From Synechococcus elongatus PCC 6301 (GTDB lineage Bacteria > Cyanobacteriota > Cyanobacteriia > Synechococcales > Synechococcaceae), in NCBI RefSeq assembly GCF_000010065.1, contig NC_006576.1:570001-602000 (forward strand): DNA of 32,000 bases, given 5' to 3'. Position numbers and translations under genes: made by a program. Below the pieces are notes generated by a model. It was not told the DNA's origin. It made no database searches and worked only from the letters and a program-made list of their open reading frames with translations. Below are positions 1 through 25,176 of this stretch, in pieces (the stretch's first letter is position 1; every line of letters begins with the position of its first letter).

Positions 1-243
1 TATTCCAGCTCACTCGGTAACCAGCGGGTTGGGGCAGTCAGGATGGGCATCGCGTTAACCCTGAAAGTGCTTAACCATCCAAGCTAGGCTGGCACCAGCT
101 TTCAATTCGTAGCTGTAGCTACTGTTTGCGCTGGCAGCGCTAGGGTTGTTGCAAGTCTTATTCAAGTTCGTGGCGATCACTGACTTCACTTAATCTGTTG
201 CAAGCTGAAGTTGAGTGCTTCCCCGTCCGTTTCCCCCCTTTGC

Positions 244-1038
244 ATGACCTACTGCCTCGGCATCGTCACCCAAGCTGGCCTGATCATGGCGGCTGACTCT
301 CGCACCAATGCGGGCATCGACTACATCTCGACTTATCAGAAACTGTTTGACTTTTCGCTGCCGGGTGACCGCACCATTGTCATCTGCTGCTCGGGTAACC
401 TCTCGATTACCCAAGCGGTGCTGAGTCAACTCCGGCGGGATCTCGCCGGTCATTTCGACATCAATCTGCACAGTCTGCCAACGATGTACGACTTGGCTCG
501 CTACCTCGGCCAAAAAGTGCGGCAACTGCAAGAGAGCGACCGCGATTGGCTGAAGCAAGATGGCATCGACTTCTATTGCAACTTCTTGCTGGGCGGACAG
601 ATTCGCGGCGGCCCGATCGAGCTTTACTTGGTCTACGGCCAAGGTAACTGCATCCACGCCACCCCCGAAACGCCCTATCTCCAGATCGGGGAAACCAAGT
701 ACGGCAAGCCCATTCTCGATCGCACGATCAGTTTTGATACCTCCCTCGACATGGCCGCCAAATGTGCGCTGATGTCCTTAGATTCCACGATGCGATCGAA
801 TCTTTCCGTCGGGCCACCCCTCAACCTGGCTCGCTACGAACGCGATAGCTTGGTGGCTCCGATGCTAGTTCAGTTCCCCGCCGGCCATGAATATTTGGTG
901 GAAATGCGCCGTCGCTGGGAAATTTCCCTCAAGGATGCCTTCATGCGGCTACCAGATATCGACTGGAGTCGACAGTTAATGCGATCGCTCAGTCCAGTAA
1001 GCGAGTCAGTGCCACTTGATAGTTCAGAGTTGAACTAA
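244..1038 (+). CDS. Anbu-type (ancestral beta subunit) proteasome homologue, Ntn hydrolase
   Basis: The track ORF 211..1038 begins at a TTG. The internal ATG at 244 gives the N-terminus MTYCLGIVTQAGLIMAADSRTNAG, with Thr directly after Met and no propeptide. Asp17 and Lys32 (numbered from Thr1) sit where proteasome-type catalytic residues are expected. The gene lies beside the transglutaminase/alpha-E/ATP-grasp trio that typically accompanies Anbu. Confidence 0.8.
   Translation: MTYCLGIVTQAGLIMAADSRTNAGIDYISTYQKLFDFSLPGDRTIVICCSGNLSITQAVLSQLRRDLAGHFDINLHSLPTMYDLARYLGQKVRQLQESDRDWLKQDGIDFYCNFLLGGQIRGGPIELYLVYGQGNCIHATPETPYLQIGETKYGKPILDRTISFDTSLDMAAKCALMSLDSTMRSNLSVGPPLNLARYERDSLVAPMLVQFPAGHEYLVEMRRRWEISLKDAFMRLPDIDWSRQLMRSLSPVSESVPLDSSELN
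981..988. repeat. HIP1 (highly iterated palindrome, GCGATCGC), one example of a window-wide dispersed octamer
   Basis: I verified exact GCGATCGC at 981, 1514, 1614, 4404 and 25952. Many more copies are visible by eye in nearly every gene. I did not make a total count. HIP1 over-representation is a known hallmark of many cyanobacterial genomes. Confidence 0.9.
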
Positions 1039-1852
1039 TTCCAGGGGCGTAGTAAGTGCCCTCAGTGGGTGCTGTCTGAGCTGGTAGGGGAGCACTGGCC
1101 ACAGCAATGTGGGTTTCGGCCGTGGCGAGGCCGATGGTTGGATCAAAACCTCGCCAGCCTGCTCCTGGCAAATAGATTTCGGCCCAAGCGTGGAGGTCGA
1201 ACTGCTCTGCTTCGGGGCCACCCCAGTGGTAGCCACTGACAAATCGGCCTGCCAGTCCCACAGCCCGACAGACCTCTAGAAAGACCGCCGTAGTATCTCG
1301 GCAGGAGCCTTGACCCAGGGCTAGAGTTTGACCGGGCCAACGGGGATCGCCGAAGGGGCGCTGAACGTAGCGGATTCGCTCGTAGAGGTATTGATTGAGC
1401 AGCAGCAAAAACGAGATCGTGTCGTTTTTAGCCTGCTCCAAGAGCTGCTGAGCCAAGCGCAAACAGGCTGGATCAAACCCGCCTGGTAGGTAGCTCTGGC
1501 GATAGGGCAGCAGGCGATCGCTCTGGGATTGCGCCTCAGAGCGCAGGGGTAGGCGAACGGCCCAAGGCTCTAGCAGGAACTCAAACGGATTTTCGAGACA
1601 GGTCACGACTTCAGCGATCGCTTGCAGCTTGACATGATCGCAGGGGTCATTGAACCAAGCGCGCTGACAGAGATTGCCGTCGAGCTCTTGAACTTCGAAC
1701 AAGCGATCGGGCTGGGGCTGAATTTGCAACTGAAACGATCGCAATTGCTGGAAGTGATTGCCACGCGGTTGCAGCCGGATCCAGTGAGGATGAAGGTCGA
1801 CCGGAGCATCGTAGTAATACTCAATCTGATGCTGAATGCGAAAGTGGGGCAT
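989..1852 (-). CDS. transglutaminase-like family protein (bacterial N-terminal domain plus Cys-His-Asp core)
   Basis: 287-aa ORF with an ATG start at 1852. The core motifs are GQGSCRDTTAVFLEVCRAVGLAGRFVSGY (catalytic Cys) and DLHAWAEIYLPGAGWRGFDPT (His/Asp). It begins 3 nt after the alpha-E gene stop. Confidence 0.85.
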   Translation of the reverse strand: MPHFRIQHQIEYYYDAPVDLHPHWIRLQPRGNHFQQLRSFQLQIQPQPDRLFEVQELDGNLCQRAWFNDPCDHVKLQAIAEVVTCLENPFEFLLEPWAVRLPLRSEAQSQSDRLLPYRQSYLPGGFDPACLRLAQQLLEQAKNDTISFLLLLNQYLYERIRYVQRPFGDPRWPGQTLALGQGSCRDTTAVFLEVCRAVGLAGRFVSGYHWGGPEAEQFDLHAWAEIYLPGAGWRGFDPTIGLATAETHIAVASAPLPAQTAPTEGTYYAPGISSTLNYQVALTRLLD

Positions 1853-1855
1853 AGG

Positions 1856-2812
1856 TTACGCCACAATCGCATCGAGCGTGAAGAAGGTCTCAAAAATTTG
1901 CTGATCAACGTGGTTCATTTTTTGTTCGAGATCATCGAGAAATTCATGTAAGCCAATCTCAAAAATTTCAGCCATTGTTAAATAGCCTAATTCAGCGCTG
2001 AGCCGCCCGATCGCCCGTTGCGCCAAGTTCGACCAAGTTCCAGAGGGCGTCCCACAAATCGTATGGAGAGAGGATTCGACACGGCCGAGGCAATGGCGAA
2101 TCGATCGCGGAAAAATGGGATTGAGGATGAGGAATTCTGCCACTCCCAAGGGCGTAATCCGGCGTCTGCCCTGTTTTCGGAACATTTCGTAAGCGCTAGC
2201 CGATCGGAGCAGCGCAATCCATTGCAACTCATCGAGCAACGTCCCTACATCCTGAGGTGAGGGCAGCAAGATGAAGTATTTCACATCTAAAATACGAGCT
2301 GTTTTATCCGCTCGTTCCAGCATTCGTCCGAGATGTCCAAAGTGCCAGCCTTCATTGTGGGAAAGGGTAGCATCCATCACGCCAGCAAATAGGTGGCTCG
2401 ATAATTTTACCTCTTGAAAAAAACGAGGTAGATCGACCTCACCCGCATGACTAGAAGTGTCTTTGATCATCCAGTAGAAGGAGTTAACTTGCTCCCACAT
2501 TTCAGAGGAGATGATCTCGCGAATTGAACGCGCATTTTCTCGTGCTGCAGCCAAGCAGCTGAAAATTGAGTTGGGGTAATCGCGATCGAAGGTCAAAAAT
2601 TTGAGCACATTTTCCTCTGTTGCCTCACCATAGCGATCGCGGAAGAGTTCATGATCGCCAGTGGTGACAATCAGGGGTTCCCACTGTTGCGAGGTGCTCG
2701 AACCGATATCGAGGTTGAGGCTAAAGTTGACATCGACAAAACGTGCAATATTCTCAGCCCGTTCGATATAGCGATTGAGCCAATAGATAGAGTCAGCAAC
2801 ACGACTGAGCAT
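1856..2812 (-). CDS. alpha-E domain protein (COG2307-like)
   Basis: 318-aa ORF with the N-terminus MLSRVADSIYWLNRYIERAENIAR, which is typical of the alpha-E family. An AGGAGG Shine-Dalgarno sequence lies 8 nt upstream of the ATG. The gene is sandwiched between the ATP-grasp and transglutaminase genes. Confidence 0.8.
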   Translation of the reverse strand: MLSRVADSIYWLNRYIERAENIARFVDVNFSLNLDIGSSTSQQWEPLIVTTGDHELFRDRYGEATEENVLKFLTFDRDYPNSIFSCLAAARENARSIREIISSEMWEQVNSFYWMIKDTSSHAGEVDLPRFFQEVKLSSHLFAGVMDATLSHNEGWHFGHLGRMLERADKTARILDVKYFILLPSPQDVGTLLDELQWIALLRSASAYEMFRKQGRRRITPLGVAEFLILNPIFPRSIRHCLGRVESSLHTICGTPSGTWSNLAQRAIGRLSAELGYLTMAEIFEIGLHEFLDDLEQKMNHVDQQIFETFFTLDAIVA

Positions 2813-2831
2813 ACAAATATCCTCCTGCTTA

Positions 2832-4298
2832 TTAAGCTTGCGACTGACTAGAATTAAAATCTGATGACTCAGTCAGAACCCAGGTGTCTTTACTGCCGCC
2901 ACCCTGCGATGAGTTGACGACAAGTGAACCCTTACGCATTGCGACGCGCGTGAAGCCACCCGGTGTGATGTGAATGGTTTCTCCACAGAGAATATAGGGC
3001 CGCAAGTCGACGTGGCAACCAACAAGTTCACCATCAATTAACGTCGGCGATCGCGACAGACTGAGAGTTTTTTGAGCAATGTAATTGCGAGGATTTTCTT
3101 GAATTAAGCGGGCAAATTTTTGCCGTTCTTCTTCACTGGCTTGGGGGCCAATCAGCATACCATAACCTCCTGATTCACCCGCTGCCTTAACCACTAACTC
3201 ATCTAAGTGATCAAGGACATAGGCTCGCTGGTCTTCTTCCCAGCAGAGGAAGGTCGGCACATTATTCAAAATTGGATCTTCACCCAAGTAGTAGCGAATC
3301 ATCGCCGGCACGTAGGTGTAGATCACCTTATCATCTGCTACGCCGGTGCCTAGGGCATTGGCGATCGCAACCCGTCCCTGACGATAGACCTCCAGCAAAC
3401 CAGGAATCCCCAAGAGCGAATCTGGCTTGAAGGCAAGGGGATCAATAAAGTCATCATCAATGCGCCGATAGATGACGTCCACACGTTTCAGACCACAGGT
3501 AGTTCGCATTTGTAAGTAACCATCCGCGATCACCAGATCTCGACCTTCAACTAACTCGGCACCCATCTTTTGAGCCAAATAGGCATGTTCAAAATAGGCC
3601 GAATTGTAAATACCTGGGCTGAGAACGACAACGGTTGGGTTATCAACCTGATCAGGCGCAAGGTGCAGTAAGGTATCTAGCAGATGCCCCGGATATTCAT
3701 CGACCGGCAAAACGCCGCCGCGACTAAAGACCTCTGGGAAGGTACGCTTCATCACTTGGCGGTTTTCTAAGAAGTAGGAAACTCCGGACGGGCAGCGAAC
3801 ATTATCTTCGAGAACATACCAAGCACCACTGCGATCGCGGACCATATCAATGCCGGCGATATGGCACCAGATGCCATGGGGTGGCTTCAGGCCAATACAA
3901 GGCTTAAGAAACCCATTAGCTGAGAGAATTAATTCCTCAGGAATGACCCGATCCTTCAGGATTTTTTGGTCATTGTAGATATCCTGTAAGAAGCAGTTGA
4001 GTGCTGTAATTCGTTGCTTTAACCCTCGCTCTAAAGGCCACCATTCTGTGGCACTCATTAAACGGGGGATAATATCGAAGGGGATAATCCGCTCGATCCC
4101 GCCTTCCGCTCCATAGACATTAAAGGTCGCCCCCATTTTCATCAGGAAGTTTTGGGCTAATTGCTGCCGGCGCTGAATTTCTTCAACGGGCAACGTATCA
4201 ACCTTGCGCACTAGGAGCTCTGCTTCAGGACGAGGTTGCCCTGGGGCCAAAAATAGCTCGTCGTAGAAGTCCCCCGGATCGTAGCTTTGAAAGAGCAC
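2832..4298 (-). CDS. circularly permuted ATP-grasp (type 2) amidoligase-like protein (COG2308-like)
   Basis: 488-aa ORF with a GTG start at 4298 and no in-frame ATG further upstream. The N-terminus is MLFQSYDPGDFYDELF. It is the first gene of the minus-strand trio. Confidence 0.85.
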   Translation of the reverse strand: MLFQSYDPGDFYDELFLAPGQPRPEAELLVRKVDTLPVEEIQRRQQLAQNFLMKMGATFNVYGAEGGIERIIPFDIIPRLMSATEWWPLERGLKQRITALNCFLQDIYNDQKILKDRVIPEELILSANGFLKPCIGLKPPHGIWCHIAGIDMVRDRSGAWYVLEDNVRCPSGVSYFLENRQVMKRTFPEVFSRGGVLPVDEYPGHLLDTLLHLAPDQVDNPTVVVLSPGIYNSAYFEHAYLAQKMGAELVEGRDLVIADGYLQMRTTCGLKRVDVIYRRIDDDFIDPLAFKPDSLLGIPGLLEVYRQGRVAIANALGTGVADDKVIYTYVPAMIRYYLGEDPILNNVPTFLCWEEDQRAYVLDHLDELVVKAAGESGGYGMLIGPQASEEERQKFARLIQENPRNYIAQKTLSLSRSPTLIDGELVGCHVDLRPYILCGETIHITPGGFTRVAMRKGSLVVNSSQGGGSKDTWVLTESSDFNSSQSQA

Positions 4299-4794
4299 GC
4301 CCGTCTTACCCCATAAATGTCATGAAAGGACTATAGAAATCGCTCAGAGTCCACTTCTGTAGTTCGGGATACGGCAAGATAAACTTTTGGATTTGGTTAA
4401 GGTGCGATCGCTAGAAGGTCGTAGCAGTATCTCTGCTAGCCCTTTGGTTGGAGCTTTGGACACACCTACGACAGATTCAAGCAGCCGCAATCGCCAAAAT
4501 TGACACAGTTGCGAGATCCCTGTCTAAAATTTGGATCCCTGTGTGGTGCATCACAGAGGTTCCGATAATTTTGCGGTCTAATGAAATCGAGTTCAGTCTC
4601 CGACCTATGATGAACTTCCGCTTTTTACAGCTTGGCAAGTCAGTCGGTTCTTGCTTGATTCTGCAAGGACTCTTACTACTGTTAATCTCTAGCATTCTCA
4701 AGGTAGATCCCCTGCAACCCGCCCATAACAGTAGCGCTAGTTTCTTTTGGGAAAACTGGGCTCTTGACCAGCCTCCCGCTGTCCCCTAACTGCC

Positions 4795-5916
4795 CTAGAC
4801 CGTCGCTGGTAATGATTGAGTGATTGCTGTTTGCAGATGAGCTAAAGTCCGCTCATTTTCTGCTGGGCTACCAATCGTAATTCGCAGTCCGTCAGCGGTG
4901 TGGCGCACCAACGTTCCCTGAGCTTTGAGTTGTGCGGCTAACGCTGCAGTTTGTGAGGAAGACTGCGTTTTTAAAAATAGGAAATTGCTAGCGCTAGGCC
5001 AGACTTGAAGCTGGGAAACGACTTGCAGTTTTCGATAGAGGCGATCGCGTTCAGTGATCAATCTAGGGATGGCTGAGAGTAGTTGCGATCGCGCCTCGAG
5101 GGCAAGAGTTGCTGCCAATTGAGCCACGCTTGGCAGATTGTAGGGTAACCGAATTGCTTCGAGGGCAGCAATCAGTTGGGGATCCCCAATGCCGTAGCCA
5201 ACACGATGGGCGGCCAGTCGCAACGCTTTAGAAAAGGTACGGGTAATCAGCCAGTTGGGGTGTTGGGGTAACTCAGCCAGCAGGGTTTCGCCGCTGAATT
5301 CAAAATAGGCCTCATCAATTACCACTAAAATCTGGGGCGGGACTTGGCGCAGCCAGTCTTTTTCCGCTTCCGTCAGCGGGTTTGCGGTGGGTGAGTTGGG
5401 ATGGACAACGAAACAGAGGCGAACTGGCGTGCCCTCCGTTTGGGTAATCGCAGTTTCGGCCGCCGCCAGATCCATCTCCCAAGTTTGGGGATCGCGGCCG
5501 ATCCGCACTACAGGAATCCCCAAAGTCTCTGCCACAATCCCGTACATCGAGAAGGTTGGCTCCGCCACCAAGACCGAGCCTTGTCCACCCAGGCACGTGG
5601 CAATCAAGATCGAGCGAATCAGCTCATCGGAGCCGTTGCCCACAGTGACGTGCTCTGGCCCCGGTTGCCATTGCCCAGCGGTTTGCTCACTCAAGTAGTC
5701 GACGATCGCCGCCTTGAGATCCGTGTGGCTGCCATCGGGATAGCGGTTGGACGCGATCGCCTCCACATAGCGATCTGCCAGCGTTTGCTTGAGATCGGTC
5801 GGTAGATCATAGGGACACTCATTAGTGTCGAGAATGTCCATCGCCATACCAGTCCCGCCCGGATTGGGGTGGTGGGGCTGGCAACGAGCAAGCTCAGAAC
5901 GCAAAAACGGCAGCAT
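4795..5916 (-). CDS. hisC: histidinol-phosphate aminotransferase
   Basis: The track ORF 4795..6051 has an implausible Arg/Ser/Pro-rich leader. The ATG at 5916 gives MLPFLRSELARCQPHHPNPGG...LDTNECPYDLP. The PLP-lysine region is RTFSKALRLAAHRVGY, and the overall pattern is class I/II aminotransferase. Confidence 0.9.
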   Translation of the reverse strand: MLPFLRSELARCQPHHPNPGGTGMAMDILDTNECPYDLPTDLKQTLADRYVEAIASNRYPDGSHTDLKAAIVDYLSEQTAGQWQPGPEHVTVGNGSDELIRSILIATCLGGQGSVLVAEPTFSMYGIVAETLGIPVVRIGRDPQTWEMDLAAAETAITQTEGTPVRLCFVVHPNSPTANPLTEAEKDWLRQVPPQILVVIDEAYFEFSGETLLAELPQHPNWLITRTFSKALRLAAHRVGYGIGDPQLIAALEAIRLPYNLPSVAQLAATLALEARSQLLSAIPRLITERDRLYRKLQVVSQLQVWPSASNFLFLKTQSSSQTAALAAQLKAQGTLVRHTADGLRITIGSPAENERTLAHLQTAITQSLPATV

Positions 5917-5945
5917 GGCGCGGCAGGGGTGAGGAGGAGCAGAAA

Positions 5946-6860
5946 TTAACGAAGAGCGATCGGAAAGACCCAGTCTTGGTAGGCGGCCAAGCGCCCTTCG
6001 GTGATCAAGGTCAGTTGTTGGCGAATTTGATCGGTGATCGGGCGATCGCACGGTGTCAAGTAGTTCTCAACTTGTTTGACCGGCGTCACCTTGGCGGCAG
6101 TACCACTCAGGAATACTTCGTCGGCAATGAACAATTCCGACTTATCAATCGGGCGTTGATCGACGGGGATCCCCAGGTCTTGTGCCACCCGAATCACGCT
6201 GTCGCGGGTGATGCCTTCTAGGATGTCTTGGTCGTAGCCAGGGGTGATCAGACGGCCATTGCGAACCATGAATAAGTTCATGCCCGTGGCTTCGCAGACC
6301 TTGCCCTGACTATTCATTAGGATGGCTTCATCAAACCCAGAGGCGACCGCTTCAGTTTTGGCGAGCGATGAGGCGATGTAGGCACCGCTGATTTTGCCGC
6401 GCAGCGGTAGGCTGCGATCTTCTTGGCGATACCAAGAGCTAATTCGGCAACTGACCCCTTCGGGTGAGAGATAGTCGCCCAGCTGCAGACCGTAGATGAA
6501 GAAGTCTTTTTCGATGTTGTGCAGGCGCGGCGCAATCCCCAAATCCGAGGTGTAGACGAAGGGGCGGATGTAGAAAGATTGGCTAGGCTGGTTTTTCTGA
6601 ACGAAGGCTTCGATTGCCTTGAAGATCTCCTCGGCACTCAATTCAAAGTGGAGAAACTTAGCACTTTGACTCAGCCGTTGGCAGTGGCGATCGAGCCGAA
6701 ACAGTAAGACGCGATCGGGATTTTCAGGATCGGGGATCCCGCGCAGCCCGCCAAAGGCACCGGTGCCGTAGTGGAGGGCATGAGTTGCAATTGAGAGTTG
6801 TGCCTCAGGGAAGGGAACCAACTGTCCGCGAAAAAAAGCGTAGGGCAGAAAGTCGTTCAT
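5946..6860 (-). CDS. ilvE: branched-chain amino acid aminotransferase (class IV)
   Basis: The track ORF 5946..6887 starts at a TTG, and the ATG at 6860 gives MNDFLPYAFFRGQLVPF. Supporting motifs are LHYGTGAFGGLRG and EATGMNLFMVRNG. The gene ends 29 nt upstream of the hisC start. Confidence 0.9.
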   Translation of the reverse strand: MNDFLPYAFFRGQLVPFPEAQLSIATHALHYGTGAFGGLRGIPDPENPDRVLLFRLDRHCQRLSQSAKFLHFELSAEEIFKAIEAFVQKNQPSQSFYIRPFVYTSDLGIAPRLHNIEKDFFIYGLQLGDYLSPEGVSCRISSWYRQEDRSLPLRGKISGAYIASSLAKTEAVASGFDEAILMNSQGKVCEATGMNLFMVRNGRLITPGYDQDILEGITRDSVIRVAQDLGIPVDQRPIDKSELFIADEVFLSGTAAKVTPVKQVENYLTPCDRPITDQIRQQLTLITEGRLAAYQDWVFPIALR

Positions 6861-9078: not shown

Positions 9079-10833
9079 ATGCAACCTGTCGATTACACCA
9101 CGTTGGTCGCGGTCTGCCGGGAACTCCAAACAGCGGTTGTGCCGGCTCGGCTCGAACAGGTCTATCAACGCGATCGCTTCAGTCTGTCTCTCGGTCTGCG
9201 GACCATGAGCGATCGCCCCTGGCTGTTGCTGTCGTGGCATCCAGAAGCTGCGCGACTGCATTTAGATACGCCGCCACCCCGCGATCCTGACACCTTTACT
9301 CTCAGTCAACAGCTGCAAGCGGTGTTGAAGGGATTTGCCCTGATCGATCTGCACATTCCACAGCCCTGGGAGCGCATTGTGACGCTCTCCTTTGGCGATC
9401 GCCCAGGAGATCCGCCGCGCTTTCGGCTGTTACTAGAGGTGATGGGCAAGTACAGCAACCTCGTCCTCGTCAATGGCGACAGTGAGATTGTGACGGTGGC
9501 GCATCAGGTCAGCGATCGCCAGTCGCGCTTGCGCACGGTACGCACGGGTGAACCTTACGAGTGGCCACCAGCGCTGACGACGCCAATTCCCGATTTGGAT
9601 GAACCCTTCGATCGCTGGTGCGAACGCCTACAACTCGTGCCAGGACGCCTCGATCGCCAGTTGATTCAGTGCTATCGCGGCCTCAGTAGTCGCTTGGTGC
9701 AGCAGCTTTGTCGTCAAGCGGATTTGGATCCGCAGCAGAATACAGCAGCGATCGCCCCGGCTGCGTGGCAGCAGTTGTACGGGGCTTGGCAGGATTGGTT
9801 GCGAGGCTTACAGGCTGAGACTGCTTTTCAGCCCCAGTTGCAAGAGTCGGGCTATCGCCTCTTGCCCACAGGGCCAGACTCTGCCAATAGCGTCAACGCG
9901 GTGATTGCCACCTACTACGATCGCCAGCTGCTCTCGCAACAATTTCAGCAACTCCGTCAGCAACTGTCGCAACGATTGCAACAACAGCAGCAGAAACTGC
10001 AGCAAAAACAACAGGATTTTCAAGGTCGATTACTAGCGGCGGAAGATGCCGATCGCTGGCGGCAGCAGGGCGATTTGCTGATGGCTTCCCTTGATCAGTG
10101 GCAGCCTGGCATGGAGTCTCTAACCTTGCCAGATTTTGAGACGGGCAAGCCGCAGCAGCTTCAGCTCGATCCGGCCTTGAATGCGGTGCAAAATGCCCAG
10201 CGTTTCTATCGCCGGCACCAAAAAGCCAAGCGATCGCGGCAGGCGGTTTTACCGTTGCTGGCAGAAGTAGAAGCTGAACTACGCTATCTCGACAGCATCG
10301 CGACGGCTTTAGCTCCGCTACAAACGGCCCAGACCCGTGCCGATTGGTTGGCACTGCAGGATATTCGTGAGGAGCTGGCACAACAAGGCTACTGGCCTTA
10401 CAAGACCGATCGCCCCAGACCAACGCGATCGCAACCTGATTTTCTGCGCTACCAAAGCCCCAGCGGCTATGAAGTTTGGGTGGGGCGCAACAATCGCCAG
10501 AACGAAATCCTCACCTTCCAAAGCGCCACGGATTACGATCTCTGGTTTCACGCCCAAGAAATTCCCGGCAGTCACGTCCTGCTGCGCTTACCCGCAGGCG
10601 ATCGCCCCGATCCAGTTGACCTTCAGTTCAGCGCTGATCTGGCAGCACTCCACAGTCGCGCAGCTCAAGCCGATCAAGTGCCCGTCGTTTGGACGGAACC
10701 GCGCAATGTCTGGAAGCCAAAGGGTGCCCATCCGGGTATGGTGCTCTACCGGCAGGAGCGAGTGATTTGGGCTCAGCCCCAACAGCGGCGATCGCAACTC
10801 ACTGATAACGTAGCGTTATCAACCGCTAGGTAA
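9079..10833 (+). CDS. NFACT-family protein (fibronectin-binding protein A / RqcH-like ribosome quality-control factor)
   Basis: 584 aa. The N-terminus is NFACT-N-like ([17 protein letters not shown]...[10 protein letters not shown]). The middle is a Gln-rich coiled coil ([23 protein letters not shown]). The C-terminal module is NFACT-R/DUF814-like ([18 protein letters not shown]...[16 protein letters not shown]). Confidence 0.85.
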
Positions 10834-10984
10834 TTATCCCTAAATCCCTATGAGCTGAAAACGTAGCCACGATTACACTCTTGTTACACTTGAGTCATAA
10901 GGGTACTCCCAAGCTTTGCAGGGGCTGTCTGAGGATTGGGACCACAGCACGGCCACCCACCTGTATCAACTTCATTCAATCAGT

Positions 10985-19369: not shown

Positions 19370-19852
19370 ATGGCCGATCCCATCTCCACCGAGCCCCAGT
19401 CGCAGGGGGATCCCTATCTTGCTTTTCAAGTCAGCAAGGGGGAAATTTTTGCGTTTGCGGCAACTAGCGTGCGAGAAGTGATTCTCCAACCCGCTGATTC
19501 GATCACGCCAATGCCCAATGTTGCTAAGCAGGTCTTGGGTATGTTCAATTTACGCGGTCGCGTGATTTGGGTAGGTGACCTAGCTCAGTTGTTGGGCCTG
19601 CCGAGTCAATTCCGCTCGGATCGTCCCGAGGTGCCGCTGCTGGCGATCGAGCATGGCAATGTTCTGATGGCCGTGATGATCGATCAACTCGGCGGCATGG
19701 TTTGGTTGAATCGACAGGAGCTACAGCCGATTAGCGGCCCTGCAAAACTCCAGACCTTTTGTCGGGGTGAACGCCCTGCCACGGAAACTGGGCGGGCAAT
19801 CCGTGTCTTAGACCCCACCGTTATCCTCAACCCCCAGCACTGGTCCCTCTAG
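19370..19852 (+). CDS. cheW: CheW-like coupling protein
   Basis: 160 aa with a CheW-domain pattern (YLAFQVSKGEIFAFAATSVREV...PNVAKQVLGMFNLRGRVIWVGDLAQLLGL). It is the first gene of the cheW-MCP-cheA run. Confidence 0.9.
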   Translation: MADPISTEPQSQGDPYLAFQVSKGEIFAFAATSVREVILQPADSITPMPNVAKQVLGMFNLRGRVIWVGDLAQLLGLPSQFRSDRPEVPLLAIEHGNVLMAVMIDQLGGMVWLNRQELQPISGPAKLQTFCRGERPATETGRAIRVLDPTVILNPQHWSL

Positions 19853-19867
19853 TTCCCCCTAAGCGCT

Positions 19868-22387
19868 ATGACTTCGATGGCATCTGAAGACCGCAGCCTC
19901 TCCTACGAGCAAGTTGAACAGGAGTACCTCAGTGGCCACTACAGTGAAGCAGCTGAGCTAGCTGAGGCACTGGTTCAGACTGAGCCGCAGAATCCTCGCC
20001 TGCGCTTGCTGCGCGGTCATATCTTCTACAGCTTGGGGCGCAATGACCAAGCACGGGTCGAGTACGAGCTGATCCGGGGAATCACGCCCGATCCCGACAT
20101 TCTCGAGCAGGCTCTGCTGGGAATGGACCGTTGTGATAGCCGCCCCCACGAGGACGTTAGTTCGGATATGGAAGGCACGGTGATTGTGCCGATTGGGGCA
20201 GCTTTGCCGGTGATCGAACAAGTGGATCCGTCGGCCCTAGCACTCGATTTGCCCCCGCTGAGTGGTACGGATACGATCGCAGAGGAACCTAGCTCCGATC
20301 GCGATGATGGCGACAATCCTTTTGCCACCGATCCGGCTAGCCCTGCCGCCTCTGAGACCGAGGCTGAGGCACCAGCCTGGTTAGCGGACATAGAAGAATC
20401 AGCATTTTCGTCCACGGATGAATCGAGTCCCGAACCTTGGGCAGAGGCTGCGGAAGCTGAAGAGACAGCGGTAGCGGAGCCAGCAGTAGAGGAAGCGATC
20501 GCCCCAGCGGCAGAAACGCTGATCGCCAGTGAGCCTGAGGCGATTCCAGAGCCGCTGTCGCCAGAAGTCGATCTTGCTGAATCGCAGCCGCCGATCACAG
20601 CGGACGAGACTGTCGTAGAAGTTGATCTGGCCGCAGAGTTCGCCGCCTTGGCTGAGCCAGAAGAGGTTGCCAGTGAGCCAGCCGCTTCTACTGCTGGGCT
20701 GGAGGAACCGGGGCCGGTCAGTTTTGACGCGATCGCTGATGAAGTGGCCAAAGAGGTGCTCGGTGCAGCAGAAACTGCCGTTGCGCCTCAGCCCGAGCTG
20801 AAAGCCAGTCCTGCCCCCGTTCTCGAGAACCTACCCACGCCGCCCAACCTCGCTGAAGCTGCCGCGATCGCTCGGCAACCAGTGACGTCCCCGCTGCGCC
20901 CCCAAGAGACCAAAGCCAATCGGGCAGCTGTTGCGGCCACTCCTGCCAGCAATGCACCCAAAGCCTTACCAACCCCGCCCAAGCAAACAGCAGAAACCCG
21001 TGTTGGCTTAATCGCCCTGGTCTCAGCCCTAGCTGCTGCTGCCGTAGGGGTGGTTGGCTGGCAAGCTTCAACACCCGAAGCCCGCAACCGCGTTGTGCTC
21101 GCCAGCATGGCCAGCATGGCTGTGGCTGGGGCTGCCTCTGCTGGTATTGCTCTGCAGCTGCAGAACCGGACGGGCAAGCGCTACCGCGATCTGCTGGAGC
21201 GACTTAATGAACAGTGCCAGCAGATGAGTAATGGCGACTTTGAAACGCCTCTCCAAGTCGGTGGCAACGATGATGTCGGGATGTTGGCCCTGCGCTTCGA
21301 TCGTATGCGCAGTGTCTTGGGCGATCGCATCAACCGCCAAGAGAAGCGCCTGACCACCCTAGAGCAGCAACGGGAAGGCCTCCAAAACCAGGTGATTCGT
21401 CTGCTGGACGACGTAGAGGGGGTAGCCCACGGTGACTTGACCGTTCAGGCTGAGGTGACGGCCGACGTTCTCGGGGCCGTGGCGGACTCGTTCAACCTGA
21501 CGATTCAGAACCTACGCGAGATCGTGGCCCAGGTGCGCGATGCAGCACTGCAGGTCAACGCAGCCGCAACCGACAACGAACAGTCCGCGAAAAACCTGTC
21601 AGCGGAAGCGCTCCACCAAGCCGAGGAACTCGCCGCTGCCCTCAACTCAGTCCAGGTGATGACGGAGTCGATTCAACGGGTTGCCATCAGTGCCAGCGAA
21701 GCGGAGTCGGTCGCCCGCGCTGCTTCGCAAACAGCTCTCAAGGGCGGTGAGGCGGTTGACAAGACCCTCTCAGGGATTTTGCGGATTCGCGAAACGGTGG
21801 CCGAAACAACCCGCAAGGTGAAGAAGCTGGCCGAGTCTTCCCAAGAAATTTCCAAGATCGTGGCGCTGATCTCGCAGGTCGCTTCACGAACCAACCTGTT
21901 GGCACTCAACGCCAGCATTGAGGCAGCTCGGGCCGGTCAAGCCGGACGAGGGTTTGCGATCGTTGCGGATGAGGTTCGCCAGCTGGCCGATCGCGCCGCG
22001 AAGTCCTCGAAGGAGATTGAGCAGATCGTGCTCAAGATTCAGAGTGAGACAGGTTTGGTAATGACTGCCATGGAGGAGGGTACCCAGCAGGTGATTCAAG
22101 GGACGCGACTGGCAGAACAGGCCCGTGGTGCTCTTGATGAAATCATTCAGGTTTCGACCAAAATTGACGACCTTGTCCAATCGATTACGGCCGACACTGT
22201 GCAACAGACCGCCATGTCTCGCAGCATGGCCGAGGTGATGCAGTCGGTGGAGACCACCGCTCAAAACACCTCTCAAGAGGCGCAGCAAGTGGCTGCTTCC
22301 CTGCAGGGCTTGGTAAATATTGCAGGGACGTTGCGAGAGTCTGTGGACCGCTTCCGCCTACAAGCATCGGCTGCTAAGGAGAACTGA
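19868..22387 (+). CDS. methyl-accepting chemotaxis protein with N-terminal TPR head, long acidic disordered linker, 2 TM helices, HAMP and MA domains
   Basis: 839 aa. The N-terminus is TPR-like ([41 protein letters not shown]). Roughly aa 95-375 are rich in E, A, P, S and D. TM helices lie at about 21000-21062 and 21091-21160, separated by only about 10 residues. The HAMP motif is [13 protein letters not shown], and the MCP hairpin tip is [31 protein letters not shown]. Confidence 0.9.
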
Positions 22388-22389
22388 GC

Positions 22390-25176
22390 ATGTCGTCCAC
22401 CAGTGATAACGTTTTGCGATCGCTGTTTCTACGAGAAACGCGTGAAAATCTCCAGCTGCTGACCCAGATGATTGGCCAGATGGAAGCTGGGCTGCCGGAT
22501 GCAAAAACCTTTGCAGACGCTTCGCGGGCCGCGCATTCGCTCAAGGGTGGAGCCGCCCTGCTCAAGTTCGAAACCTTCCGGCAACTGGCAGCTGGACTCG
22601 AGACTTGCCTGTCTCTGCTATCTGAAGCCGAGTTGCCCGACTACGAGGTGAGTCTCCCGCTGTTTCAACGGGCCGCCGCGCTGCTGATTACGGCGACCGA
22701 TCGCATTGAAGCGGGCGTTGAAGAGCAGGCTGTGGTGCCCGAGGAAGGGAACCCCCTGATTGAACAGCTCCAGGTTTTGCAGGAGATGCTGCAGGCAGCT
22801 GTGCAAGTGCCACCGGATCAATCCGCCGTTACCAGCACGCTCGAAGACTTGCTGACCCAAGATTTTGAGACAGTCTTGCTGCCGCCGACTCCTGATTTGG
22901 AGCAGACCCTCGATCAGCTCCTGGGCGACCTCGAGGAAACTCCCAGCCCGATCGCTGGCCAGGGAAGCGACGGCGATCGCCCAGCTTTAGAGGACCTCAA
23001 CTTTGACCTCGAGGACTGGATTGAGGCCAGCGAAGAAGAGTCTGAGACGGTCGAAATCGACATTGTGGCCCAGGTCAAAGCCCTGGAAGCTGCGATCGCT
23101 GACTTGACGCAGCACCCCCACGAGCAGCCCCTCAGCTTGGGCATCAAGGACGACATTCTGAGTGCGGTCATCCAAGCCGCTCCCCGTCTGCCGGTGGCCC
23201 TGACGCTAGAGCCAGTGGCTAAGGCCCGTACCCAGGACAATGGCAAAACCCCCGTTGTCTTTGAACAGACTCTGCGGGTGCCGGTGCGTCAGTTGGATAA
23301 CCTCAGCAACCTAGTCGGGGAGATTGTCGTCAGCCGGAATACCCTCGAAAGCGATCAGTCCCACCTACGGGAAACCCTCGAAAACCTGATGCTACAGGTG
23401 CACCAGCTGGGTGATTTGGGTGAGCGGATGCGGGAGCTCTACGAGCGATCGCTTCTGGAAACTGCCCTCGCTGCACGTCGCCAACTAGTTGGTAGTTCTA
23501 CAGCCGCTGGCTCTGCCGGAGCTTCGACCTTTCCCACCGAGCAATTCGACGACCTCGAACTCGATCGCTTTAGTGGTTTCCATTCCATTTCTCAAGAAAT
23601 GATGGAATTGCTAGTCCGTCTGCGCGAGGCAGCCTCGGACATTGACTTCATGGTCAATGAACCCTTTGACCAACTGACCCGCAACTTCCAGCAAATTACC
23701 CTGCAGTTGCAAAGCGAGTTGAACCAGACTCGAATGGTCCCCTTCTCGGACCTGACGGATCAACTGCCACGGGCTGTCCGCGAAATCTCACGGCGCTGTG
23801 GCAAGGGTGCCCGTCTGGAGATCGAAGGGAAAGACATCTTGATTGACAAGATGATCCTGCAGAAACTGCAGGCGCCCATGACTCACCTGATCAACAACGC
23901 CCTCAGTCATGGCATTGAAACGGCAGAAATTCGCCAATACCGCAATAAATCAGCGGAGGGAACCCTGGTCGTTCGTGCCTCACTCCAGGGCAATCGGACC
24001 CTAATCACTGTTACCGATGATGGGGCCGGGATCGATGCTGAGCAGGTCAAGCTCAAAGCTTTGGCACGGGGTTTGATCACCCCAGAAGAAGCCGCAGGGA
24101 TGCGGGTGCGGGAGATCTATGAACTCCTGTTCCGACCCGGCTTCAGTACCCGAGATCAGGCCGATGAATTGGCGGGCCGCGGGGTGGGGCTAGATGTGGT
24201 TCGCCGGGCGCTCCATGAAATTCAGGGCGAGATCGTGGTGGATTCGGAGCTGGGGAAAGGGACAACCTTTACCTTCCGCTTGCCCCTCGCTCTCTCGATT
24301 ACCAAGGCTTTGACCTGCCTCCACGAACGGGCGCGTTTGGCCCTCCCGATGGATAGCGTTGAGGAAATGCTGGATATTCCCCAGCAGCGCCTCGCGATGG
24401 ATCCCCAGGGGCAGTTGCGCCTGGATTGGCACAATTTGTCGCTCCCCGTCTTCCCGCTCTCATCCCTCCTCGACTTCCATCTGCCGTTTGGGCGATCGCG
24501 CTATTACAACAGTCTGGGCGATGACGGTGTCGTCTCGATTGTCGTTCTGCGTAATGACAACGAGTACCTCGCCGTTCAGACCGATCAGATTGAAGGGGAA
24601 CGGGAAATTGTGATCAAGCAGATCGAAGGTCCGATCGCCAAACCCCTCGAGATCTTGGGCATCACCGTCCGCTCTGACGGTCAGGTCATGCCGATCGTGG
24701 ACGTCTTGGAACTGTTTGATATTGCCTACGGCCGCGTCCGTCAGCGTCAAGTAGCCCCCGTAGCCCCCAGTGCTGGCGAGACGAGAACCAATACAGAACC
24801 GATGGTGCTGATCGTCGATGACTCGATCACGGTGCGTGAGCTGCTGTCGATGACCTTCAAAAAGGCGGGCTATGTGGTGGAACAAGCGCGCAACGGCCAA
24901 GAAGCCCTAAAGAAGCTCTATTCGGGTCTGCCCTGCGATTTGGTTTTCTGCGATATCGAAATGCCGAAGATGAATGGGCTAGAGCTCTTAGAGCGGCTTC
25001 AGGCTGATCCCAAGCTGCGGAGTTTACCGGTGGCGATGCTGACATCGCGAGGCGCTGATCGCCATCGTCAAATTGCTGCCCACTTGGGCGCTCGGGCTTA
25101 CTTCACAAAACCCTATCTAAAAGAGCAGCTGTTGGAAGCCTCGGCTCGCTTGAGAAATGGCGAACGACTCATTTAA
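22390..25176 (+). CDS. cheA: hybrid CheA histidine kinase (Hpt - linker - dimerisation/HATPase - CheW-like - receiver)
   Basis: 928 aa. The Hpt motif is AAHSLKGGAA, with the His codon at 22534-22536. HATPase motifs are DDGAGID, GRGVGLDVV and GKGTTFTF. A CheW-like region follows. The C-terminal receiver reads MVLIVDDSITVRE...DLVFCDIEMPKMNG...LTSRG...TKP. Confidence 0.92.
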   Translation: MSSTSDNVLRSLFLRETRENLQLLTQMIGQMEAGLPDAKTFADASRAAHSLKGGAALLKFETFRQLAAGLETCLSLLSEAELPDYEVSLPLFQRAAALLITATDRIEAGVEEQAVVPEEGNPLIEQLQVLQEMLQAAVQVPPDQSAVTSTLEDLLTQDFETVLLPPTPDLEQTLDQLLGDLEETPSPIAGQGSDGDRPALEDLNFDLEDWIEASEEESETVEIDIVAQVKALEAAIADLTQHPHEQPLSLGIKDDILSAVIQAAPRLPVALTLEPVAKARTQDNGKTPVVFEQTLRVPVRQLDNLSNLVGEIVVSRNTLESDQSHLRETLENLMLQVHQLGDLGERMRELYERSLLETALAARRQLVGSSTAAGSAGASTFPTEQFDDLELDRFSGFHSISQEMMELLVRLREAASDIDFMVNEPFDQLTRNFQQITLQLQSELNQTRMVPFSDLTDQLPRAVREISRRCGKGARLEIEGKDILIDKMILQKLQAPMTHLINNALSHGIETAEIRQYRNKSAEGTLVVRASLQGNRTLITVTDDGAGIDAEQVKLKALARGLITPEEAAGMRVREIYELLFRPGFSTRDQADELAGRGVGLDVVRRALHEIQGEIVVDSELGKGTTFTFRLPLALSITKALTCLHERARLALPMDSVEEMLDIPQQRLAMDPQGQLRLDWHNLSLPVFPLSSLLDFHLPFGRSRYYNSLGDDGVVSIVVLRNDNEYLAVQTDQIEGEREIVIKQIEGPIAKPLEILGITVRSDGQVMPIVDVLELFDIAYGRVRQRQVAPVAPSAGETRTNTEPMVLIVDDSITVRELLSMTFKKAGYVVEQARNGQEALKKLYSGLPCDLVFCDIEMPKMNGLELLERLQADPKLRSLPVAMLTSRGADRHRQIAAHLGARAYFTKPYLKEQLLEASARLRNGERLI

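Follow-up and report, generated by a model that had tools for sequence, protein, structure and literature searches.

The function of Anbu, a proteasome-like N-terminal nucleophile (Ntn) hydrolase, has been open since 2008, and an intact copy of the four-gene set to which it belongs sits in the lineage of Synechococcus elongatus, a leading genetic model among phototrophs. In a 32,000-nucleotide (nt) stretch of S. elongatus PCC 6301 (NC_006576.1, positions 570,001 to 602,000; "the window"), this copy lies at positions 244 to 4298, where the Anbu gene faces, on the opposite strand, genes for a circularly permuted ATP-grasp ligase, an Alpha-E protein, and a transglutaminase-like protein. The locus raises the question of when the cell uses this set and whether its four products work as one machine. 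The answer that we favor, with somewhat more conviction than doubt, is a ligase/hydrolase module of nitrogen starvation to which a separately transcribed Anbu is loosely coupled. The cassette is an intact copy of the known four-gene Anbu set, and the gene set itself is not new. What is new relative to the literature searched is a conserved NtcA promoter at a mapped transcription start, its contrast with sigma-54 signals elsewhere, and the regulatory decoupling of Anbu.

Induction of the proteobacterial operon by nitrogen limitation has already been reported (PMC3235984), and for this reason the window was searched for the NtcA motif. It contains four matches to GTAN8TAC, compared with 1.0 expected, and two of the four fall in the two upstream regions of the cassette. 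One of these is the predicted NtcA box GTATCCCGAACTAC (4359..4372, read on the minus strand), which is centered at -42.5. On the minus strand, the box (4372..4359) is followed by 23 nt, the -10 box TATAGT (4335..4330), 6 nt, the transcription start A 4323, and 25 nt leading to the GTG start codon of the ATP-grasp gene. The rule for class II NtcA-activated promoters is a GTAN8TAC box at approximately -41.5 plus a TAN3T -10 box (PMC3898017; PMC5714215), and TATAGT fits the latter. The transcript map of PCC 7942 (PMC3219970 supplement) assigns the three genes to a single mRNA (transcript 972; 1046481..1049817) with a 25-nt 5' untranslated region (UTR), which corresponds to 4299..4323 on the minus strand of the window, and the mapped start coincides exactly with the base predicted by the promoter anatomy. 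Canonical NtcA promoters of the glnA, urtA, and nirA type likewise have GTAN8TAC about 42 nt upstream of the start, a TAN3T element, and a rise in expression upon nitrogen starvation. The window operon differs from them in that its induction is weak (about 2-fold in PCC 7942) and its NtcA site is predicted. The other two GTAN8TAC matches in the window (10736..10749 and 10863..10876) are located around the 3' end of an NFACT/RqcH-like gene (9079..10833).

The promoter stands out by its conservation. Across approximately 80 nt of promoter and UTR, there are three differences from S. elongatus CP144288 (about 96% conserved), compared with about 81% identity for the locus overall, and the sequence directly upstream of this segment is poorly alignable. 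A perfect box is present upstream of the ATP-grasp gene at 10 of 13 informative cyanobacterial genome loci and at half of the six cyanobacteria-like metagenome loci; boxes were counted within 350 nt upstream of that gene (500 nt in one scan), and all matches lay at less than 300 nt. Against a background of 0.12 GTAN8TAC matches per kb (about 0.04 per upstream region), the box is observed in about 70% of the cyanobacterial relatives. The N8 cores vary between loci (at least 10 are distinct), and a TA-initial hexamer is usually found 23 to 24 nt after the box.

Outside the cyanobacteria, a different signal is found. Upstream of 73 non-cyanobacterial relatives of the ATP-grasp gene, NtcA boxes are near background (5 versus 1.7 expected) and the sigma-54-like motif TGGC-N8-TGC is enriched (20 versus 3.7 expected). 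This enrichment fits the strong NtrC/sigma-54 dependence of the Burkholderia cenocepacia cluster (PMC5491218) and the enrichment of sigma-54 promoters reported for COG3484 (PMC12316311). In contrast to the proteobacterial operon, nitrogen control in the window would apparently run through the NtcA box and not through NtrC/sigma-54.

Expression of the orthologous genes under nitrogen starvation was taken from RNA sequencing (RNA-seq) of PCC 7942, given as reads per kilobase per million mapped reads (RPKM) for control versus nitrogen-minus conditions (PMC4973221 supplement). The ATP-grasp gene increased from 291 to 765 RPKM (log2 fold changes of 1.0 and 1.29) and was called differentially expressed. 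The genes encoding Alpha-E (507 to 1,097 RPKM) and the transglutaminase-like protein (209 to 468 RPKM) had log2 fold changes of 0.6 to 0.7, which were not significant. Anbu was unchanged (83 to 89 RPKM).

Several points weigh against this reading, both in its regulatory part and in what it implies for the proteins. Induction of the operon is just about 2-fold and is statistically significant for the first gene alone, and the transcript and RNA-seq data are those of a sister lineage (PCC 7942; about 81% DNA identity). A perfect box is missing from 3 of the 13 genome loci and 3 of the 6 metagenome loci, and the loci that do bear one are phylogenetically related, so that the counts are not independent. 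We found no chromatin immunoprecipitation (ChIP) or electrophoretic mobility shift data for NtcA at this promoter in any strain, and these gene families do not come up in the NtcA ChIP papers on Synechocystis and Anabaena. Purified Anbu had no peptidase activity when standard proteasome substrates were tried, none having been found yet for any Anbu, and it forms no stable complex with the other operon proteins (PMC6376114). Finally, the predicted structure of Alpha-E matches no fold in the PDB (best E value, 0.69; TM score, <0.37) and gives no mechanistic hint. Nevertheless, the anatomy of the NtcA box, the mapped start, the conservation, and the RNA-seq data together favor direct nitrogen control, from which we infer NtcA binding itself. 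Direct control of the ligase operon by NtcA and nitrogen is thus considered probable.

The identity and anatomy of the cassette are very nearly certain. The initial annotation had recognized four open reading frames (ORFs) as Anbu, a transglutaminase, Alpha-E, and an ATP-grasp ligase; the ORF list bears out their coordinates and a Pfam profile search bears out all four families. All four members are adjacent and full length, with intact catalytic residues. Anbu (244..1038, plus strand, ATG start, 264 amino acids [aa]) scores 35 bits against the Pfam Proteasome family. Against all PDB sequences, it scores 193 to 254 bits to five Anbu entries (5loy, 5lox, 5nyw, 5nyj, and 5nyf) and 231 bits to the Pseudomonas aeruginosa and Yersinia bercovieri type structures; Anbu structures were published in 2017 to 2018. 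The next-best PDB matches are 20S beta-6 subunits at no more than 18 bits, no HslV or BPH entry appears at an E value of ≤10, and the NCBIfam model of the archaeal beta subunit reaches just 20 bits against a cutoff of 224. Scores to Anbu entries that are far above those to 20S beta subunits, together with the absence of HslV and BPH, place the protein in the Anbu group and outside HslV and the 20S beta subunits, as had been proposed from the sequence. HslV, the 20S proteasome beta subunit, and BPH have the Ntn-hydrolase fold and the Thr1/Asp17/Lys33 catalytic set in common with Anbu, which differs from them in lacking both an ATPase partner and a propeptide. Among the genome representatives searched, the best identity to the Anbu of the window is 66%, and no protein on record was found to be identical to it.

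The N-terminus of Anbu had been named as one point on which the initial claim could fail, since a start at TTG 211 would leave the threonine unexposed. That start was rejected: the TTG is not conserved in CP144288, where the alignment has a one-base gap at about 229, between TTG 211 and ATG 244, and all 80 of the cyanobacterial homologues have a start codon immediately before Thr (75 ATG and 5 GTG). Most of these homologues have an in-frame stop upstream of the Met-Thr and no alternative start between the two, and the RefSeq annotation calls the PCC 7942 orthologue at an identical 264 aa. Thr2 of the ORF aligns with residue 1 of the crystallized Anbu chains. The predicted Met-Thr N-terminus without a propeptide (MTYC) therefore stands. 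Thr1, Asp17, and Lys32 (T2, D18, and K33 when counted from Met) are invariant in 81 sequences, comprising that of the window and the 80 homologues, so that residue alignment upholds the active site described earlier.

The same holds for the Cys-His-Asp motifs of the transglutaminase-like protein (989..1852, minus strand, 287 aa), in which Cys184, His221, and Asp237 are invariant in 20 sequences (window plus 19 homologues) and align with the catalytic region of 6g49. Its matches to Bact_transglu_N and Transglut_core, at 70 bits each, are above the cutoffs. Alpha-E (1856..2812, minus strand, 318 aa) covers its Pfam profile end to end at 360 bits and is 99% identical to an S. elongatus protein; all 44 sequences compared have the residue pairs E17-R18 and E166-R167. 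No solved relative of it was found by sequence search. The AlphaFold2 model is all helical (mean predicted local distance difference test score, 86.9; predicted template modeling score, 0.86). The product of the GTG-initiated ORF at 2832..4298 (minus strand, 488 aa) covers CP_ATPgrasp_2 (558 bits) and CP_ATPgrasp_1 (495 bits) end to end and matches the structural genomics entry 3n6x at 570 bits over residues 12 to 476, making it a putative ligase by sequence. Its Y. bercovieri homologue releases phosphate from ATP (PMC6376114). None of the four cassette proteins matched a PADLOC defense model.

The Anbu gene runs convergently to the other three, which are on the opposite strand, as the initial annotation had stated from the ORF strands, so the four genes do not form a co-directional set. 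The coding sequences of Anbu and the transglutaminase-like protein overlap tail to tail by 50 nt (989..1038). The overlap contains the palindrome TAGTTCAGAGTTGAACTA (1020..1037), which spans the Anbu stop codon, and the fold of the minus-strand RNA of 980..1050 is more stable than that of shuffled controls (z = -2.84); the palindrome and fold may represent 3'-end hairpins for both convergent mRNAs. In PCC 7942, Anbu has its own monocistronic mRNA (1050679..1049751; transcript 856 of the PMC3219970 supplement) with a 119-nt 5' UTR, which ends 15 nt beyond the stop codon, inside the transglutaminase gene. Transferred by homology through the intergenic alignment, this UTR would occupy 125..243 on the plus strand of the window, with a start at about 125. 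In PCC 7942, the 3' ends of the three-gene and Anbu mRNAs overlap across 67 nt. The overlapping coding sequences and the two mRNAs of PCC 7942 point to two convergent transcription units with overlapping 3' ends. Coexpression of the two units, for which a test had been proposed, does not emerge from the PCC 7942 data: there are two transcripts, and the nitrogen response is confined to the ligase unit and is modest.

The convergent layout is not peculiar to the window, however, but is the cyanobacterial norm when the genes are linked. At 61 cyanobacterial loci, the available sequence extends at least 4.5 kb downstream of Anbu; 16 of them have a transglutaminase-like gene convergent with Anbu, and most of these also have the Alpha-E and ATP-grasp genes. 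Linked loci are always convergent and never co-directional, with stop-to-stop distances ranging from -50 nt to several kilobases. The remaining 45 loci do not have the three genes within reach. Judged from these arrangements, the cyanobacterial norm is a predicted three-gene ligase module with Anbu placed tail to tail or at another genomic site. The genes that interrupt the cassette in other cyanobacteria were considered as conserved accessories and rejected, being heterogeneous; by ORF translation, and as candidate labels given without a family search, they include J-domain-like, methyltransferase, TauE-like, MBOAT, and HicA-like genes. In seven metagenome loci (L102, L105, L111, L112, L114, L117, and L128), a distant Anbu-like gene lies co-directionally between the Alpha-E and transglutaminase genes, a gene order that differs from that of the textbook operon. 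These Anbu-like genes have 25 to 32% identity and are non-cyanobacterial.

The proteobacterial Anbu operon (Pseudomonas and Y. bercovieri) has the same four families, the same order, and the same catalytic residues as the window, and it is described as a four-gene co-directional operon (PMC6376114). Neither has an AAA+ partner gene. The proteobacterial operon responds to nitrogen limitation, and the ligase operon of the window probably would too. In the window, in contrast, the Anbu gene points the other way and its end overlaps that of the transglutaminase gene; judged from PCC 7942, it would have a promoter and a monocistronic mRNA of its own and would not be induced.

A second NtcA-type box, GTAGCTGTAGCTAC (109..122), was identified by motif search in the divergent intergenic region between Anbu and its leftward neighbor. 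The neighbor is an orthologue of Synpcc7942_1036, a 167-aa hypothetical protein without a Pfam domain, of which the window holds the 5' end (1..50, minus strand; ATG at 50..48) before the gene runs off the edge. On the minus strand, a 22-nt spacer separates the box from a following TAGCTT (86..81), and the center of the box is 42.5 nt away from where the mapped start of Synpcc7942_1036 would fall; in PCC 7942, nitrogen starvation raises the expression of this gene 3.4-fold. The GTA, the TAC, and the -10 box of this promoter are kept in CP144288, and the N8 core changes. By its position, the box would be suited to activate the leftward neighbor. A role as an activator of Anbu was rejected, since the plus-strand spacing to the -10 element is just 18 nt and Anbu is not induced; moreover, the sequences upstream of Anbu in 80 relatives hold 4 NtcA boxes versus 2.9 expected, which is no enrichment. 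The neighbor was likewise rejected as a cassette component, as it is not next to the cassette in any other locus.

This box is centered some 9.5 nt before the inferred transcription start of Anbu (~125). It would thus lie over the Anbu -10 region, and NtcA occupancy might hinder Anbu transcription. A reciprocal wiring can be drawn from these positions, in which one NtcA box turns on the three-gene mRNA, the second activates the leftward neighbor over the Anbu -10 region, and the convergent mRNAs overlap by 50 to 67 nt. We regard this as speculative and rather unlikely, and the PCC 7942 RNA-seq data include no significant drop in Anbu under nitrogen starvation. If it were true, nitrogen starvation would shift the balance between the two units toward the ligase module, perhaps at the expense of Anbu.

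What the proteins would do under nitrogen limitation can be proposed from gene identities and regulatory evidence, which is also the basis on which we infer the substrate, the chemistry of each step, and any physical link to Anbu. NtcA bound to 2-oxoglutarate would turn on the ligase module. The ATP-grasp protein, acting with Alpha-E, would consume ATP and thereby make an amide or isopeptide bond on a substrate that resembles a peptide, and the Cys-His-Asp enzyme of transglutaminase fold would hydrolyze or transfer that bond. Anbu, as a constitutively expressed Thr1 hydrolase, would trim the resulting peptides, and the net outcome would be the salvage of nitrogen from peptides or proteins. This scheme of ligation, resolution, and trimming by Anbu is offered as tentative.

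A serious rival, although one to which we assign a low probability, is a small-molecule pathway that resembles glutathionylspermidine synthetase/amidase or the gamma-glutamyl-putrescine (Puu) route, with a ligase and a cysteine amidase that form and cleave an amide on a nitrogen compound of low molecular weight, and in which Anbu is a mere neighbor or a further amidase. Pairs of a ligase and a cysteine hydrolase occur in nitrogen-regulated catabolic routes. The closest structure to the ATP-grasp protein, 3n6x, was deposited as a "putative glutathionylspermidine synthase," although this deposited name is not an assay result. Strong nitrogen control, along with covariation with urea domains, is typical of scavenging pathways, and in marine metagenomes the Alpha-E, CP_ATPgrasp, and Bact_transglu_N domains do covary with urea metabolism domains (PMC3597751). 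The inactivity of Anbu on peptides (PMC6376114) also agrees with a small-molecule pathway. However, the nearest relatives of Anbu are proteasome beta subunits, its pockets bind peptide inhibitors (PMC5666114), and no transporter or further catabolic gene is conserved beside the module.

Another model is a tag-and-degrade machine like pupylation, in which the ligase and Alpha-E attach a peptide or amino acid tag to target proteins, the transglutaminase-like enzyme edits or removes it, Anbu is the obligate protease, and all four are coregulated; the initial annotation had cited the prediction that the set ligates such a tag and then processes or degrades the targets. The linkage of the four genes in many phyla speaks for it, as do the predictions of Valas and Bourne in 2008 and of Iyer et al. 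in 2009, the latter a peptide-ligation prediction as cited in PMC5666114 and PMC6376114. Valas and Bourne described the Anbu operon, its linkage, and its presence in cyanobacteria (PMC3235984), and the account of the literature given earlier agrees with PMC3235984, PMC5666114, and PMC6376114. Hypotheses on the role of the operon are called unconfirmed in PMC6376114. The active site of Anbu is complete and of the proteasome type, the protein binds inhibitors of the proteasome (PMC5666114), and its linkage is kept in 16 cyanobacterial loci. Against this, Anbu in PCC 7942 is on a separate mRNA and is not coinduced, it is unlinked in 45 of the 61 informative cyanobacterial loci, the three-gene module occurs without it in most metagenome loci, and neither a complex nor peptidase activity was detected in vitro (PMC6376114). 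The separate transcript, the lack of coinduction, and the frequent unlinking weaken this model, and we consider it improbable.

That the locus is one of general stress or quality-control proteolysis without a link to nitrogen, with boxes arising by chance and a 2-fold change that is noise, is very unlikely: the induction is small and reaches significance for just one gene of the three, a motif as short as GTAN8TAC is in play, and Fuchs et al. favor a general degradative role for Anbu (PMC5666114), but the box is at -42.5 from an experimentally mapped start (PCC 7942) and accompanied by a TAN3T -10 box, it occurs in about 70% of cyanobacterial relatives versus about 4% expected, and the proteobacterial homologues are independently nitrogen controlled.

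The cassette is intact, as first reported, and it is already known in this lineage, being annotated in PCC 7942 as Synpcc7942_1032 to Synpcc7942_1035 (RefSeq SYNPCC7942_RS05300 to SYNPCC7942_RS05315). These orthologues have identical gene lengths, the 50-nt overlap, and the same flanks and promoter boxes. The gene order is that of Synpcc7942_1029 to Synpcc7942_1036: ilvE, hisC, a small ORF, the genes for the ATP-grasp, Alpha-E, and transglutaminase-like proteins, Anbu, and the gene for the 167-aa hypothetical protein. A literature search found no paper text naming Synpcc7942_1032 to Synpcc7942_1036 and no paper from 2018 onward linking Anbu and ATP-grasp. The four cassette proteins are 89 to 99% identical to those of S. 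elongatus CP144288 (locus L161). At the DNA level, identity to CP144288 is about 81%, which marks the window as a distinct lineage of the S. elongatus group. Mismatches fall mostly at third codon positions, indicating purifying selection on the coding sequence, against which conserved noncoding blocks stand out.

One such block precedes the small ORF (4607..4789, plus strand, 60 aa), an orthologue of Synpcc7942_1031 that is divergent from the ATP-grasp gene and has a hydrophobic N-terminal half. Its first 40 aa match those in CP144288 exactly even though the DNA has synonymous changes, which makes a genuine gene probable. Synpcc7942_1031 is about 7-fold more highly expressed upon nitrogen starvation in PCC 7942 (80 to 428 RPKM), and its mapped start corresponds to about 4434 in the window, approximately 70 nt from the center of the NtcA box at 4359 to 4372. 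The region from 4434 to 4606 lies upstream of the ORF. Within it, a 58-nt block (4503 to 4560) is perfectly conserved between two lineages that are otherwise about 81% identical. An older 113-aa annotation of this ORF, beginning at TTG 4448, appears unlikely, since the DNA of this block is 100% conserved and has no changes of the synonymous type. The conserved region holds TTGACA (4500 to 4505), TAAAAT (4525 to 4530), and the direct repeat GATCCCTGT (4515 to 4523 and 4534 to 4542). The conserved leader has no Rfam match, and its RNA fold is not significant (z = -0.73). The block at 4500 to 4560 might serve as a binding site for a regulator or belong to the leader of this nitrogen-induced small gene. 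The small ORF was also considered as a tag or precursor peptide and rejected, as it is not beside the cassette in any other locus.

Farther along, the longest ORF for a hisC-like aminotransferase (4795..6051, minus strand, 418 aa, GTG start) overlaps an ilvE-like gene. The RefSeq PCC 7942 orthologue has 373 aa, which places the true start probably near 5916 and makes the extension an artifact of ORF calling. The region from 9079 to 31903 encodes the NFACT/RqcH-like protein, an EamA transporter, DUF1350, MenE- and MenC-like proteins, MalQ, and YebC, as well as a CheW-MCP-CheA-type cluster (19370..25176), a response regulator and histidine kinase pair, a pseudouridine synthase, a PurU-like protein, and fumarase, all of which are ordinary chromosomal context. 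Rfam and tRNA scans of the whole window gave no matches.

The view with which this locus was first annotated, that the Anbu set has no known function or substrate, still stands in that none has been established, but the induction of the proteobacterial operon by nitrogen limitation is a physiological lead. If the speculative reciprocal wiring is true, the Anbu system would serve to salvage nitrogen through ATP-dependent modification of peptides or proteins, and two unrelated regulators, NtcA in one case and NtrC/sigma-54 in the other, would have converged on one module. The separate, noninduced Anbu transcript cautions against treating the four proteins as one machine. The ligase half, in turn, would be tied to the central nitrogen regulator of cyanobacteria through a promoter that can be directly mutated and assayed. 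Apparent control by NtrC/sigma-54 in proteobacteria and by NtcA in cyanobacteria points to nitrogen limitation as the condition under which substrates and phenotypes of this system may be sought.

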